A stretch of 64,000 bases of DNA, from positions 170,376,001-170,440,000 of the forward strand of contig OZ024741.1 in assembly GCA_964016885.1 (NCBI GenBank), given 5' to 3'. Shown here in pieces: positions 28,931-64,000 of this stretch (positions are counted from its first letter, which is position 1; every line of letters starts with the position of its first letter). Origin of the DNA: Eledone cirrhosa. Taxonomy: Eukaryota. Both the position numbers and the translations under genes were made by a program. The notes beneath the pieces were generated by a model that saw nothing but the letters and a program-made list of their open reading frames with translations, made no database searches and was not told where the DNA came from.

Positions 28931-29218
28931 TACGTCGCCCATTTTAACATCACCATCTGTGTTGGGGTTCATTTAGCAGAGTTTATTTTGTTGGAAGCAT
29001 TTGGACAAGGTCTCTGGTTTCTGTCTCTCTCTCTCTCTCATATATATATATACATTTTTAAGCTTGTTGAATCCCAACAAATTAAATATAACCTCTGCAT
29101 ATATATATATATATATATATATATATATATATATATATATATATATGCAGAGGTTATATTTAATTTTCATGAGGAAAGTATATACTTTCGAACGTTCAAC
29201 TATCTGGCAGATGGGTAT

Positions 29219-29261
29219 ACGGTGCTGATGATAGCTAACAAGCTTGAAACTAGTACATCGT
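29219..29261 (+). ncRNA. Type I hammerhead ribozyme (family A, copy 1)
   Basis: acggtg-CTGATGA-t agct aaca agct t-GAAAC-ta-GTA/-catcgt; 6-bp stem I, palindromic stem III ACTAGT, predicted cleavage after 29255. Confidence 0.85.
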
Positions 29262-29683
29262 TCCTGTGTCAGTGTTGAACCAAAAGGTGACGTGGTTGCC
29301 TTAACACCGTACGGCATAAAAATTCAAGCTGTTCAGTTTGTTTACAAACAAACAAAGCGGCGTTATAATAAGCGTCCGCTAAACTGATACGTGCATATAT
29401 GTATGTGTACCTGTATGTATATATATATATATATATATATATATGCATGCTACTGTACGTCTGTATACATATATGTATGTACGTATACATGCATACTTAC
29501 ATTTAAGTAAGTGCCGTACTAAGAGTGAGAAAGGAAATTTCGTTTTCATTTTATTTCAACTTATCGTTTTCGGTATGCCTGACCGACTTAGCTCACTCGA
29601 TATGCAAATTAGGCTGCTCAGCCGTTAATTTTCATAAGGAAAGTATATACTTTCGAACGTTCAACTATCTGGCAGATGGGTAT

Positions 29684-29726
29684 ACGGTGCTGATGATAGC
29701 TAACAAGCTTGAAACTAGTACATCGT
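29684..29726 (+). ncRNA. Type I hammerhead ribozyme (family A, copy 2)
   Basis: Identical motif 465 bp downstream. Confidence 0.85.
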
Positions 29727-30108
29727 TCCTGTGTCAGTGTTGAACAAAAAGGTGACGTGGTTGCCTTAACACCGTACGGCATAAAATTTCAGGCTGTTCA
29801 GTTTGTTTACAAACGAACAAAGCGGCGTTATAATAAGCGTCCGCTAAACTGATACGTGCATATATGTATGTGTACCTGTATGTATATATATATATATATA
29901 TATATATGCATGCTACTGTACGTCTGTATACATATATGTATGTACGTACGTATACACACATACTTATATATATATATATATATATATATATATATATATA
30001 TATATATATATATATATGTATGTAAAAGGTAAACAGAAATAACAACACAATCGGTACAGTGTATGGAAGGTATATATTAGGTTAACGCTTGATATAGCAA
30101 GAAGAGGG

Positions 30109-30144
30109 TTTTAACGTTTCGGACGCTAGAACTTCATCAGAAAA
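30109..30144 (-). ncRNA. Minimal PLE-type hammerhead relic
   Basis: - strand reads tttt-CTGATGA-agttctagcgtcc-GAAAC-GTT-aaaa; palindromic AACGTT stem III; stem II decayed; in a ~200-bp island between (TA)n tracts. Confidence 0.55.
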
Positions 30145-59286: not shown

Positions 59287-62200
59287 TAACATTATTCTAG
59301 AATTTAATTTAATTTAAATGTTAGTTAACCTATAAATTTAATTTAATTAATATTTTATTACAGATGAGAAAATATTATGTAATCATAAATTTTGAAAAAC
59401 CTTTAAATATTACTAATATATACTCAGTAATTTAATTTATAGATTAATTTTAATTTATTTTAACCTTTTATTATAATTTTTTTTATTATAATTCTTTTAC
59501 AGATAAAATATAACAAAATAATATCATGTATCCAATGACGGAGAAAGAATTTTTAGTATTATAGACCTAATTAATATACATTTTGGAAATATATTTATTA
59601 TTTGGTTTTAGTTTTAATCAACCTAAAACTTTAATTTTAATTTGCTTAAAATTAGTATCCTTGTACAGACGAATTGCAGAATGTCATGTAATCATAGAAT
59701 GGGATGTGTTTTTGATATATACCTAGTTAATATATTCTGTGCAATTTTTTGAAAAAGATTTGTATATCTATATGTATATGTATATGTGTGTGTTGTATGT
59801 GTATCTGTATGTATATTTATGTGAGTATATATGTATATATGTGTATATATATGTATATATATATATATATGTGTGTATATGTATATGTATGTGTATGTGT
59901 ATGTATATGTATATGTATGCGTATTAATTTTGATTTTTATTTGCATATAATTATATTATGCTATTGATGAAATACAATATCTGCTTTATGTATTGTATAC
60001 CTAATTAACATATACTAATTAACGTATACTATTGAAATAAATATATAATTTTTAATTTAGTTAACATATAATTTATATGCTACTACCGATGTAATACTTT
60101 ATTTTATTTTTATTTGGGTTTCTTTTCCCTATTACTAAATTCATCTCCTAATATTGATACCATAACGTTATTAACTTTAATTTAGTTATAATGTAATTAA
60201 TAATCTACTACTGTTTGACTTCATAATTCTGCTTCAAATATTATAAACCTAACTAATTTACACCTTGGAAATCAATATGTTGACTATCTTTGGTTTAGTT
60301 AACATATGATTAATGGTATACTTTTTTGTTTTGAGATGCATAGATTTCGTATTTCCTAGCACTGAAAATATGTAAGAACATACATTGAATTAAGATACGG
60401 AAAATATTATATGTTTCTTGAAACATATATTTACTTTGATCCCTTTCTCCAAACCCCCCCTTTCCCCCATACTATTATCATCTGTTTTTGTAAGCGTATA
60501 TGTATGAATATATGTGTAGGTGGGTGTCTATATAGGTTTTGGTATTTATTTCTAAATATAAAAATACATATATGAGCATGTAAATATGAATGTAAGATTG
60601 AGTGTGTATATATGATCGTACATACATATGTATGTATATATATGTATATATATGTATTATATATGTATGTGTATGTGAATGTGTGGTATGTATATGTGTA
60701 TGTATATGTATATATGTGTATGTATGTGTATGCTTGTATATAGGAATATATATATGTGTATATATGTATGTATATGTATATGCGTGTTTGTATGTATGTG
60801 TATATGGGTTCTGTATATATTTGTATGTCTCTCTATTTATATGTTTATCTTCGTATCTATGTGATATATGTGTGTGTGTGTGCACGTATGCATATGTATG
60901 TGTTTGTGTGTGTTTGTATGTGTGTGTGTATATATATGTGTATTTGCGCACACTCACATACACATATATATATATATATATGTGAGTGTGTATGTGTGTC
61001 TGTGTGTGTGTGTGTGTGTGTATGTGTATATATATATATATATATATATATGTGTATGTATATATATATAGATATATATATATATATATATATATGTGTA
61101 TATAGGTGTCTATGTGTGAATATATGTCTTTTCGTATGTGTGTATTTATGTATGTATATATGTATGTGTATGTATGTATGTGTATGTATGTATGTATATA
61201 TATATATATATGTATATATGTATATGTGTATATATATATATATATATATATTATTCTTTATTATTATTGTAATATAACTTATGTGTATATGTGTATAAGT
61301 GAGGTTGTGTATGTATATATACTATGTGTATATATAAGAGTAATGAAGTATATATATATATATATATATGTGCATGTCTGTTTTTTATGTGTGTGTATAT
61401 ATATATATGTATGTGTATATATGTATATATATATATATGTGTACGTGTGTGTATGTGGATATATATATATATATATATATATACATGTGGGTGTTTGTAT
61501 GTGTATTTATGGTGGTATGAGTGTGTGGATATATATGTTTATATATATATATGTATATGTATATATATATATAAGAGTCTATGTGTGTGTGTATATATAT
61601 ATATATATATATATATATATATATATATATATGTGTATGTGTGTATGTGTTGCGCGTGAGTGTGTGTGTATTTATATCTTTTTATATGTGTATGTGTATG
61701 TTCGTGTAAATGTATGTGTGTGTATGACTGTATAGGTATGTGTGTATGTATGTATGTGTAAATATCTCTATGTGCGCGTACATGTATCTATGTGTATGTA
61801 TATCTGTATGTGTATGTACATTATATTATATTTATTATATTTTATTGTTTTTATTTTTTTATTTTTCTTAATTTATAGATACATTTATATTAGGCAGTCT
61901 GGTCTGACAATCTAATACTGACCCCTCCCCCCCCCCCTCCCACCTAATTTCTGTATCTTGATCTTGAAATGTGTGTGCCAGTGTTTTTATGTGAGTGACT
62001 TAATTTCTATTTGCTTATGATTTCATATCCACATATATAAATGTGAGTGGGGGAGTGTGTGTGTTTGTATGTTCGTGGTTATGTGTATATTTATGCATAT
62101 ACGCACATGTATGTGTGATTATACTGATATGTGTGAGTATGAAAAAAATATATTTATATGCTTGACTCCATAAGTATCATTGCGTATCTTATCAGCGCAT

Positions 62201-62406
62201 TAAGCTTACAGAGATATTAACCTTGAAATTTTGTGTTTGCATCCATCTTTTTAGTATGCACATACAAATTATACACACATTATTGTAAAATATGTGTAAG
62301 GTTTTTACATGTATATACACACACCAAACTGCTTTTAACCCTTTGTGTTTTCATTGGTCAATTTTGAACTGATATTTTGAATTGTTGTTATTATCAATAA
62401 ATATAC

Positions 62407-62561
62407 TTCATTATTTCTGAAGACGGCGTATATATGAGTTAGGTATGTATATTTAATCTTGATAATTTGTATAATTTTGTATAATTTTGTACATAGATCT
62501 GTTAAATATGCATACCAATTATAACACATATATACCCTAGAAACGATCGTTAAATAGTGAA
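62407..62561 (+). ncRNA. PLE hammerhead ribozyme
   Basis: Identical to 50293-50447. Confidence 0.75.
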
Positions 62562-62614
62562 CTTTTTTTGTTTAATATAAGGAATTGTTTGTTCATTATT
62601 TGTTTAATATTTTA

Positions 62615-64000
62615 TCTTGACTCTGTATACCGTTTATCTTTCACCGAAAGTGGATTTTCATTACATCTCTTCTTTCCATGATATCCGGAATACATTGAGT
62701 TCTTCATACGGATTGGACACTACCGTAAACTCTTGGTAGATTTATCTACATAATTTTGCTCCTATTTTCACGGAAATATTCGTATTTTTGTACTGTATGT
62801 GTGTATTAATTTTATATTTATGTATAAACATATATATATGTATGATTTTGTAAACCCATATACATTTAGTTGAGCTCTTTCAATTGTCCATCATCCATAT
62901 CACAATGGAAAAACAATATTTAGGAACCTCCTTAAAAAACATACCAATACCTTCTAAGGACGACTTCTTACTCCTTATGATTCAGAAAACTAATAATTTT
63001 ATCAGAAGGGTTAGATGGAGAGCCTACCACTTCGATAGAAAATCTAAACAAGCAGATCGGAAATATATGTATGATTTCAACACTTACAAGAATCCACCAC
63101 ACAACTTTTTACTTGAAGACTTCGAGAAAGACCTTTTTAATTTAATTAAACACCTCAAATTTAAAAAGTATAAATCCGTCTTTCAAAAGGACCTTGATTC
63201 TACCCTATTGGACCTAAAAAAGTCTAAAAAAATCCATGTCCACTCGGACAAAACTGGTAACTTGTATCATATGGATATTGAACATTATAATGAGTTCATA
63301 TATAAAGAACTCAGAAAAAATTATAAAAAATCTAATAATGTGTCACTCACCAACATCAACAACAAAACACACAACATAGTAAAAAAACTAAATATTGAAG
63401 ATAGAACTGAACCTTTGGCATTGAAAAGACCACACTTCAACCTGAAAGATCACAAATCTAACTTTAACTCTAATCCTTCTATTAGACTTATATGTCCCTC
63501 CAAATCAGATATTGGAATAATTAGCAAAAAAATTTTAGATAGAGTCATCCCACAAATAAGAAAATACGTTATTTTACCACTCTGGGAAAACACCTCCCAG
63601 GTAATTAATTGGTTTAAAAATATTAGGTGTAAATCTTCTGCTTCTTTCCTACAATTTGATATAGATAATTACTATTCTTCTATATCACCCATACTCCTGA
63701 ACAAAGCATTAATATTTGCTAAAAATAGATCTAATTTAACTTCGGATGACATTAACATTATTACACATGCTAGACAAACACTTATTGAATTTCAGAATGA
63801 ATACTGGACCAGAAACACATACAGTAATCTTTTTGATATTACTATGGGTTCAAGCGATTCCGCCCAAATTACTGATCTTGTGGGCCTCTTTCTCCTTTTC
63901 AACATAAATGCCTCTTTTCCCCACCTCAAAGGTGGTTTATATCGTGATGACTGTCTTCTTCTTTCTAACAACCTTAGCCTTTCAGAAATCGAAAAAAACA
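62615..64000 (+). mobile_element. PLE unit 3, running off the window end
   Basis: Same 5' region and ORF start as units 1 and 2. Confidence 0.95.
62905..64000 (+). CDS. PLE RT protein, copy 3 (partial, open to window end)
   Basis: ATG at 62905; one visible change TAC>AAC (Y>N) at 63259; includes LYRDD. Confidence 0.93.
   Translation, partial: MEKQYLGTSLKNIPIPSKDDFLLLMIQKTNNFIRRVRWRAYHFDRKSKQADRKYMYDFNTYKNPPHNFLLEDFEKDLFNLIKHLKFKKYKSVFQKDLDSTLLDLKKSKKIHVHSDKTGNLYHMDIEHYNEFIYKELRKNYKKSNNVSLTNINNKTHNIVKKLNIEDRTEPLALKRPHFNLKDHKSNFNSNPSIRLICPSKSDIGIISKKILDRVIPQIRKYVILPLWENTSQVINWFKNIRCKSSASFLQFDIDNYYSSISPILLNKALIFAKNRSNLTSDDINIITHARQTLIEFQNEYWTRNTYSNLFDITMGSSDSAQITDLVGLFLLFNINASFPHLKGGLYRDDCLLLSNNLSLSEIEKN

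Follow-up and report, generated by a model that had tools for sequence, protein, structure and literature searches.

A hairpin behind the end sites of Hydra-clade Penelope-like elements recurs in a hammerhead-bearing non-coding repeat of Eledone cirrhosa and may mark it for copying in trans

The reverse transcriptases (RTs) of Penelope-like elements (PLEs) are the sister group of telomerase, and an RNA element that sets the start of copying in these enzymes is therefore of wider interest. The origin of the tandem and inverted insertions of PLEs, as well as the question whether retrozymes ride on PLE proteins, are left open in the available excerpts of the relevant literature (PMC8557442, PMC7229834, PMC11167929). 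Amongst PLEs, excerpts of Craig et al. (2021, PMC8557442; its section 11 for the protein signature) describe the Hydra clade, which includes Hydra-1_Obim, as carrying a C-terminal GIY-YIG domain, a DKT motif, a CxCX5C linker, CxxC and CxH motifs, no CCHH motif and a canonical hammerhead ribozyme; its members target (TA)n, insert in tandem and inverted arrangements and bear a tail at one end. Here we analyzed a stretch of 64,000 nucleotides of Eledone cirrhosa DNA (assembly GCA_964016885.1, contig OZ024741.1, positions 170,376,001 to 170,440,000), in the following referred to as the window, in which an intact, very young Hydra-clade PLE lies next to three short non-coding repeat families, A, B and C, each with one type I hammerhead per monomer. 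A hairpin found behind the end sites of Hydra-clade PLEs recurs in family B, where it is likely to be a signal for borrowing the copying enzyme of a PLE. The window thus offers an intact protein, a candidate clade-conserved RNA signal and a natural non-coding substrate with that signal at the predicted distance, which would reduce both questions to a simple mutagenesis assay.

That metazoan retrozymes lacking long terminal repeats (LTRs) are PLE passengers was proposed by Cervera and de la Pena (2020, PMC7229834), and has been argued on grounds of homology by Li et al. (2026, bioRxiv 10.64898/2026.07.22.740005). As described in excerpts of these two papers, such retrozymes share with A, B and C the short tandems without an open reading frame (ORF), one type I hammerhead per unit, a GC content under 50%, self-paired folds and co-occurrence with PLEs. 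The families of the window, known here from DNA alone, differ in being dispersed partial tandems of 1-4 units in (TA)n with head-to-head arms and two fixed ends and, for B, in a cis signal shared with PLEs; A and B are also longer than the 170-400 nt first described. The excerpts hold no report of inverted arms, microsatellite targets or cephalopods. PLE-driven retrozymes are therefore a published hypothesis, and what is new here is a signal common to the element and a non-coding passenger. Non-autonomous Chlamys PLEs such as MRC1 are, in the sections of PMC8557442 at hand, likewise ORF-less passengers with pseudo-LTRs (pLTRs) and head-to-tail multimers, but 3'-end sequence is common to them and their partner and canonical hammerheads are mostly missing, whereas B shares only a hairpin structure of ~20 nt.

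The window PLE encodes a predicted protein of 812 amino acids (not 813, as counted in a preliminary description made from the window sequence) in a single ORF that is identical in the tandem copy, with the RT followed by a C-terminal GIY-YIG domain. In an alignment with 24 relatives the protein displays the YRDD and YIG motifs; it further carries DKT, RWR, CNCRNKTNC (the CxCX5C linker), CRLC (CxxC) and CNH (CxH), while CCHH is absent from this alignment and Pfam returned no match for the protein itself. Its terminal repeat contains a canonical hammerhead and it is inserted into (TA)n, so that on these sequence features it is an intact Hydra-clade element; the preliminary description had called it autonomous and Hydra-like. 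Compared with the excerpted clade members (PMC8557442) it has RWR in place of RWK, a tail of 138 nt instead of 30-40 and a hammerhead with a very long stem II; its unit of 6.05 kb (6054 nt) includes a 3.2-kb microsatellite-rich 3' region, in contrast to the generally <3 kb of the clade, a difference that is descriptive rather than diagnostic. Addition of 29 kb of neighbouring DNA revealed that the direct arm stops in (TA)n 4813 nt beyond the window, 138 nt deeper into the terminal repeat than the inverted arm. The insertion, initially sized at 19 kb, thus consists of an inverted arm and three whole direct units and measures ~24 kb. Directly behind it the same TA tract holds, from +4971 to +13854 past the window end, a second head-to-head insertion of the same family, 3% diverged, whose two ends are likewise one short and one long. 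Among genomic copies of the PLE end, the best 30 are 99-100% identical. Two protein searches yielded ~90,000 and 86,000 first-look candidates for Hydra-like matches in the genome, amongst them five further intact families (H1-H5) with 41-47% identity to the 812-aa protein. In the excerpted Octopus vulgaris repeat annotation, which lists 30 active Penelope families, the word 'Hydra' occurs nowhere in the main text (PMC13282606).

Self-comparison and reading of the window show the inserts clustered in (TA)n tracts from 29 kb on (Table 1). Cut at the predicted ribozyme site, the monomers measure 465 (A), 523 (B) and 319 nt (C), and genomic copies bear out these lengths, which had already been given in the preliminary description together with one hammerhead with palindromic stem III per monomer. 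An initial hammerhead descriptor requiring a paired base of stem II missed all copies; relaxed to allow an unpaired one, it finds the type I hammerheads of A, B and D, with a background over 100 block shuffles of 0.13 loose and 0 strict matches on average. It was later widened for U3-A8, the core variant of C, which was read from the sequence and is known in PLEs according to excerpts of PMC4209133. An Rfam scan of the window gave no match to a hammerhead model, only microRNA models on TA runs, all below the cut-offs. Intact cores are present in 58/59 (A), 32/33 (B) and 26/28 (C) of the sampled genomic copies, a sample that favours intact copies because the queries contained the ribozyme; in the window, besides the left arm of C, the A-type copy has a damaged core (G5A at 42253-42259).

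Searches of the genome returned 620 (A), 2998 (B) and 1823 (C) first-look candidates, the best copies being 95-100% identical, and for each family 40 candidates were scored and 30 loci taken, from which duplicate loci of one insertion (2 A, 4 B) were removed. All three families are dispersed and recently amplified, with hundreds to thousands of copies each. Neither an ORF remnant nor coding capacity or an LTR was found in A, B or C, a primer binding site and polypurine tract not having been specifically searched for. The families had been regarded as unrelated in sequence; blastn agrees, detecting between A, B, C and the PLE end no similarity outside simple sequence, but a C profile weakly matches an A relative (E 0.021), and A and C are weakly alike near their end sites. 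The circular folds are stable and self-paired (z -7.9 for A, which is inflated by internal TA palindromes, -2.6 for B and -5.9 for C, relative to 40 shuffles).

While the 5' starts vary between copies, the 3' ends are fixed at two phases per family, a proximal and a distal one (250 or 309 in A, 61 or 179 in B, 142 or ~168 in C). The original picture of partial tandems starting and ending at different phases hence holds for the starts and not for the 3' ends. Head-to-head arms with both 3' ends in (TA)n were seen, as first described, at the B and C loci and at 41.9-42.5 kb, the latter being a subfamily only 77% identical to A rather than A proper. Amongst 26 B insertions, 17/18 two-armed copies pair a proximal with a distal end, one ends elsewhere and none uses the same site twice. 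In the 28 A loci, 17 of which have one typed end or none, 10/11 pairs with both ends typed are proximal/distal, two of the pairs spanning gaps. For C (30 loci) the proportion is 12/21 two-armed copies, counted from coordinates because anchor-based end typing is ambiguous in this family. Both mapped PLE insertions also combine one short (proximal) with one long (distal) end. Two fixed ends per family, usually one per arm, are the signature of the PLE 'tail'. The inner joints of the arms are variable, with 0-9 nt of overlap or short inserts, and the arms traverse 2-4 predicted cut sites unbroken, which indicates uncut multimers or circles as templates.

Behind the end sites of the autonomous Hydra families we observed a hairpin of the form RYUC-helix-YY-GARY, composed of a 4-bp stem (RYUC/GARY), two bulged pyrimidines on the 3' side and an upper helix that varies. 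It was first read from the ends of H1-H4, P, E and F, and that of H5 was read after the idea had been formulated. A descriptor for the hairpin matches 13/13 end sites of autonomous Hydra families in the genome at offsets of 3-9 nt, one of them only weakly, as well as F and the proximal site of B, where the base is swapped to GUUC/GAAC; the distal site of B matches with 3/4 basal pairs. The background amounts to 3.2% of 6868 positions and 4.3% of 10,000 shuffles. The descriptor fails at both A sites and at the proximal site of C, and its match at the distal site of C is doubtful.

In order to assess the hairpin beyond this genome we turned to marine metagenomes, which contributed 77 Hydra-like loci, 55 of them with a detectable hammerhead. 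The motif lies 3' of the ribozyme in 39/44 scorable cases, as compared with 6/44 upstream, and among 23 families with a whole 5' untranslated region (UTR), 15 have two strict hairpins, six have one and two have none. In 46 hairpins chosen by flanking sequence alone, related families amongst them not being fully independent, upper pairs 1-3 are formed in 45/46, 36/46 and 27/40 cases by several pair types, each value above all 5000 permutations, and this covariation appears only in the register with the two-base bulge. MAFFT left the 5' strands of the hairpins unaligned. Three of five metagenome ends running into TA lay 2-4 nt before the hairpin. A scorer trained only on 45 metagenome hairpins, with significance taken from 200 shuffles, places its best match in the B monomer at phase 184, 5 nt behind the distal end (22.6 bits, 0/200 shuffles as good), and the same site is found in a 72%-identical B relative (4/200), which also keeps hairpin 1. 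Hairpin 2 of the PLE reaches 31.0 bits (0/200), H5 and F give 0/200 each, H4 2/200 and E 13/200. A copy of the twin hairpin is visible in one published Hydra consensus (PMC8557442), the available main text and supplement of which contain the words hairpin and stem-loop 0 times and do not mention the twin hairpin. Searches of the freely readable literature, subscription papers, Repbase/Dfam entries and bioRxiv supplements aside, found neither the hairpin nor the one-site-per-arm rule.

Taken together with the shared target and joints, these observations make it likely, on balance, that Penelope-type proteins acting in trans have copied A, B and C, and that the copier of B is a Hydra protein which would recognize the two hairpins and start one complementary DNA (cDNA) before each. 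The shared hairpin supports a specific link of B to Hydra proteins, while the support for A and C (target, joints and two-site ends) is of a general kind; these two probably use a diverged signal and another PLE partner, and Neptune-type PLEs of this genome also end in (TA)n. Mobilisation in trans by TA-targeting PLE proteins, as put forward in the preliminary description, is thereby upheld in so far as target, joints and two-site ends agree and no ORF-bearing parent was found, but no evidence links A, B or C to the 812-aa protein in particular, and the genome has no fewer than five further intact Hydra families.

Several points count against this interpretation. Every genomic sample consists of the best-scoring copies per search and is biased towards young, ribozyme-containing ones, and the descriptor was derived from most of the families on which it was first tested. 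One A pair is proximal/proximal, and C has two distal/distal and seven other two-armed copies besides the expected ones. The distal site of H4 shows no convincing hairpin, only a doubtful long-range match; one metagenome end into TA lies 16 nt before the hairpin and one family lacks the strict motif. In B, hairpin 1 is not significant by itself and falls outside the top three scorer matches, and hairpin 2 has a mismatch in its base. The scorer finds no significant hairpin in A (175/200 shuffles as good) or C (74/200), although their best, non-significant starts lie 2 nt behind an end site. Finally, the hairpin could serve translation or act as a promoter, with the end sites being set by nearby AT-rich sequence.

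Copying in trans as favoured here could proceed as follows. A protein dimer would attach to hairpins 1 and 2 of a tandem transcript that its own ribozymes had left uncut, and both strands of a (TA)n tract would be cut by the GIY-YIG domains. Each free DNA end would then prime reverse transcription 3-9 nt 5' of one hairpin, perhaps aided by 2-4 nt of AT pairing, and the two cDNAs would stop at random and be linked through the ends at which they grew, so that one arm ends short and the other long. B, with its ribozyme and both hairpins, would represent a minimal donor, and A and C appear to obey the same two-site logic. Since the hairpin lies 3' of the start and the last unit never receives a copy of hairpin 2, the role of donor would be confined to tandem or circular copies, which would explain the persistence of these elements as partial tandems. 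The Poseidon PLE of Anolis, as far as excerpts of the in vitro work go (Frangieh et al., 2024, PMC11167929), similarly has two internal starts that define the tail, cutting and extension of both target strands, a predicted dimer, an uncut RNA template and an AT-rich target. It differs in belonging to another clade and in starting in a stem-loop rich in AC that lies inside the ORF, and the excerpts report no repeated hairpin per site, no one-site-per-arm rule and no non-coding passenger. We would go further only tentatively, with a proposal that is plausible yet falls somewhat short of being probable: Hydra-clade PLEs may use a clade-wide twin-hairpin signal (RYUC-helix-YY-GARY) to place a dimeric RT at two starts, one per cut strand, such that every head-to-head insertion would be the direct product of double priming. 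Retrozymes like B would be defined by the kept signal of ~25 nt and a ribozyme, and no recognition element for PLE trans-mobilisation would have been identified before this signal, which would also serve as a transferable tag directing the insertion of any RNA to TA.

The neighbouring insert D, which together with E and F had been overlooked in the initial inventory of A, B and C although they sit in the same TA tracts, illustrates how a stub can pass for an independent element. D copies are ~190-bp stubs, and 63/84 loci, retrieved with queries that favoured two-armed copies, pair a short with a long end, while one is same-site and 20 were left unassigned. A pattern for the sequence past the long end of D gave 48 matches, most of them running into the Hydra ORF of family H4, which identifies D as a terminal-repeat stub (5' UTR/terminal repeat of H4) and not a retrozyme; a stand-alone short interspersed nuclear element (SINE) with a master gene was rejected on the same ground. 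Such two-armed stubs would easily be misannotated as SINEs or as MITEs (transposable elements of the miniature inverted-repeat type). The genome contains ~8,900 exact pattern matches to D, 1694 with an extra G at the 5' start and 7235 with other letters (first 100: 93 C, 4 T, 3 A). The extra G hints at a copied cap behind a TATA box, but it could derive from the other arm. CCAAT- and TATA-like boxes occur ~30 nt before the start of short D copies, upstream of the hammerhead (L251, L282, L285). Matches to the non-G pattern are strongly skewed towards the forward strand (4743, against 2492 on the reverse), a hint that the assembly contains a large tandem array.

The fate of D raises the possibility that A, B and C are also terminal repeats or deletion remnants of ORF-bearing PLEs that escaped our searches, copied in cis as D is. 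D, too, appeared non-coding until the pattern search tied it to a Hydra ORF, ORF-deleted units of ~200 nt from its parent element exist in a few loci, pLTR homology is reported for 24/57 Xenopus retrozyme families in the excerpts of Li et al., and only a few of the ~90,000 candidate Hydra-like matches were inspected. We nevertheless consider this origin unlikely: the A, B and C arms circle their own monomer up to four times without coding sequence, and they have no homology to six Hydra family ends or, beyond adjoining separate insertions, to 30 GIY-YIG loci, Neptune-type ones included. A profile search against these six ends and the 77 metagenome loci, an incomplete sample of PLEs, was equally without match. 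Pattern searches covering some spacings and Hydra-type ORF starts gave, behind hairpin 1 of B, one chance match for each of two patterns and, for an ORF-bearing C parent, none, no such search having been made for A; diverged relatives at 65-75% identity or less are again ORF-less tandems. The finding that would have overturned the initial reading, monomers that are fragments of coding PLEs, was thus made for D and not, in these non-exhaustive searches, for A, B or C. An origin of the short two-armed copies as MITEs of a TA-targeting DNA transposon, with incidental hammerheads, can be given hardly any credence. Their inverted ends are flanked by TA, and D is ~190 bp long and very abundant, but the ends are asymmetric, the inner joints differ between copies and single-armed 5'-truncated copies are common, and D belongs to an RT-encoding element, which largely refutes this reading; in C relatives the ribozyme stems change sequence and keep their pairing. 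The inserts lack the fixed symmetric terminal inverted repeats around a constant interior that a MITE or DNA transposon would have.

Two further alternatives concern the template and the joints. Monomeric circular RNAs, arising by hammerhead cleavage and ligation and copied by rolling-circle reverse transcription, would be compatible with copying in trans and differ only in the template; we regard them as possible but rather doubtful. The unbroken passage of arms through 2-4 predicted cut sites and the stable circular folds speak in their favour, as do three successive A units at one locus (L014) that show no difference over 341 positions and have two private variants in common, with weaker cases at L007 and L053, and circles are demonstrated for coral, mussel and axolotl retrozymes (excerpts of PMC7229834). 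Linear uncut multimers, on the other hand, account for the same arms, and divergence within an arm, across arms and across loci is about equal (A 1.37/1.40/1.58%, B 1.75/2.26/2.21%, C 3.7/3.3/3.5%), a test weakened by the dominance of post-insertion mutation and by the selection of copies that resemble a single query. Overall, a single-circle template is not supported. As to the joints, antisense self-priming at a palindrome, proposed for head-to-head joints in the excerpted PMC3846280, or a later DNA fold-back could take the place of two target-primed cDNAs. A near-perfect palindrome is present at the joint in many D copies, for which the query favoured palindromes, and at one B locus (L053); most B and C joints, however, link different phases with 0-9 nt of overlap or short inserts, and the outer ends, both of which border on (TA)n, are unequal by a fixed tail, a pattern that a single fold-back does not predict. 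We judge self-priming or fold-back to be quite improbable.

Table 1. Inserts and their sub-features in the (TA)n-rich part of the window (window coordinates)
Feature	Position	Strand	Remarks
Single-armed copy of family A with 1.75 monomers (465 bp each)	29160..29972	+	Runs into (TA)n at the proximal site, phase 250 counted from the predicted cut
Family A type I hammerhead, core to predicted cut	29225..29255; second copy 29690-29720	+	U.U at stem II base, 6-nt palindromic stem III
Family B left arm, 1.8 monomers of 523 bp	38068..39000	-	Hammerhead cores 38720, 38197; 3' end at proximal site (phase 61)
Family B right arm	39001..39663	+	Hammerhead core 39415; uses the distal site (phase 179) as its 3' end
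B hairpin 1: GTTC/GAAC base, 4-bp upper helix, TT bulge	39026..39049; second copy 39550-39573	+	Starts 5 nt past proximal end phase
B hairpin 2 (TCTC..TC GAGC)	39144..39164	+	Starts 5 nt past distal end phase
E: 3' fragment of another Hydra-type PLE	40767..41375	+	Hammerhead core 41243; hairpin 1
F: short two-armed insert	41447..41618	.	3' half of hammerhead; strong hairpin 1 on minus strand
D: two-armed stub, terminal repeat of another ORF-bearing Hydra PLE	41723..41895	.	Arms of unequal length, the long one minus and the short one plus; hammerhead core +41835
A-type subfamily (77%), two-armed with the joint at ~42186	41923..42500	.	Distal end left, proximal end right; carries a mutated hammerhead core
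Family C left arm, 1.5 monomers of 319 bp	43858..44335	-	Ends at phase 142; core with A9G at 44030-44036
Family C right arm	44330..44611	+	U3-A8 hammerhead 44407-44443; ends at phase 168
Hydra PLE inverted arm, 5'-truncated	44764..50019	-	Meets (TA)n with its 3' end at the proximal site
Hydra PLE direct arm, 6.05-kb tandem units, at least 99.8% identity	50024..64000, continues 4813 nt past window	+	Ends at distal site
PLE hammerhead: stem II insertion >100 nt, C.A mismatch, palindromic stem III	50303..50437; copies 56357, 62417, minus 44962	+	
PLE hairpin 1 (ACTC/GAGT)	50506..50586	+	4 nt past proximal end site
PLE hairpin 2 (GCTC/GAGC)	50644..50761	+	5 nt past distal end site
Intact 812-aa RT plus GIY-YIG ORF, Hydra motifs	50794..53232; identical copy 56848-59286; third copy from 62908	+	

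A few observations on the repeat families stand apart from the question of their copying. Units of ~200 nt of the D-parent PLE with the ORF deleted, joining the ORF start to the TATA region, form short tandems at L246, L265 and L267 (also L433-L436), at L267 with the same deletion in both arms; they look like retrozymes being born and are rare (4 pattern matches). A tandem C relative of 312 bp (L243, 1-1050) has a canonical C3-G8 core, a stem II very similar to the one in the D-parent PLE, and a long flanking helix that differs in sequence from the one in C. Small hammerheads, some of them U3-A8, are found in PLEs of this genome that end in (TA)n (L402, L420, L421, L425, L430) and that we take, by their motifs, to be of the Neptune clade. 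Family A contains a ATGCAAAT octamer at phase ~345 (near 29600 in the window), kept in 9/10 aligned A variants including a distant one, which is possibly an internal promoter. Family B contains a CACGTG box.

Elsewhere in the window, the 5' joint of the A copy (29079-29166) holds a (TA)24 run flanked on both sides by ~20 bp that form a perfect inverted repeat, and a GC-rich insert of 600 bp between TA runs (40101-40714) is perhaps the 5' end of a non-LTR retrotransposon. Copies of a ~200-bp SINE, which presumably resembles the RTE-type SINEs of octopus, lie at 28041-28453, 30711-30901, 36876-37014 and 43171-43382. Upstream of the inserts, a 20-kb array of a 42-bp unit (479 copies, 7527-28026, minus strand) contains two frame changes near 24.1 and 25.1 kb that may be assembly errors, and is open on the minus strand in a frame that is mucin-like and rich in Thr, extends to as much as 5852 aa and has one N-I-T sequon per repeat.

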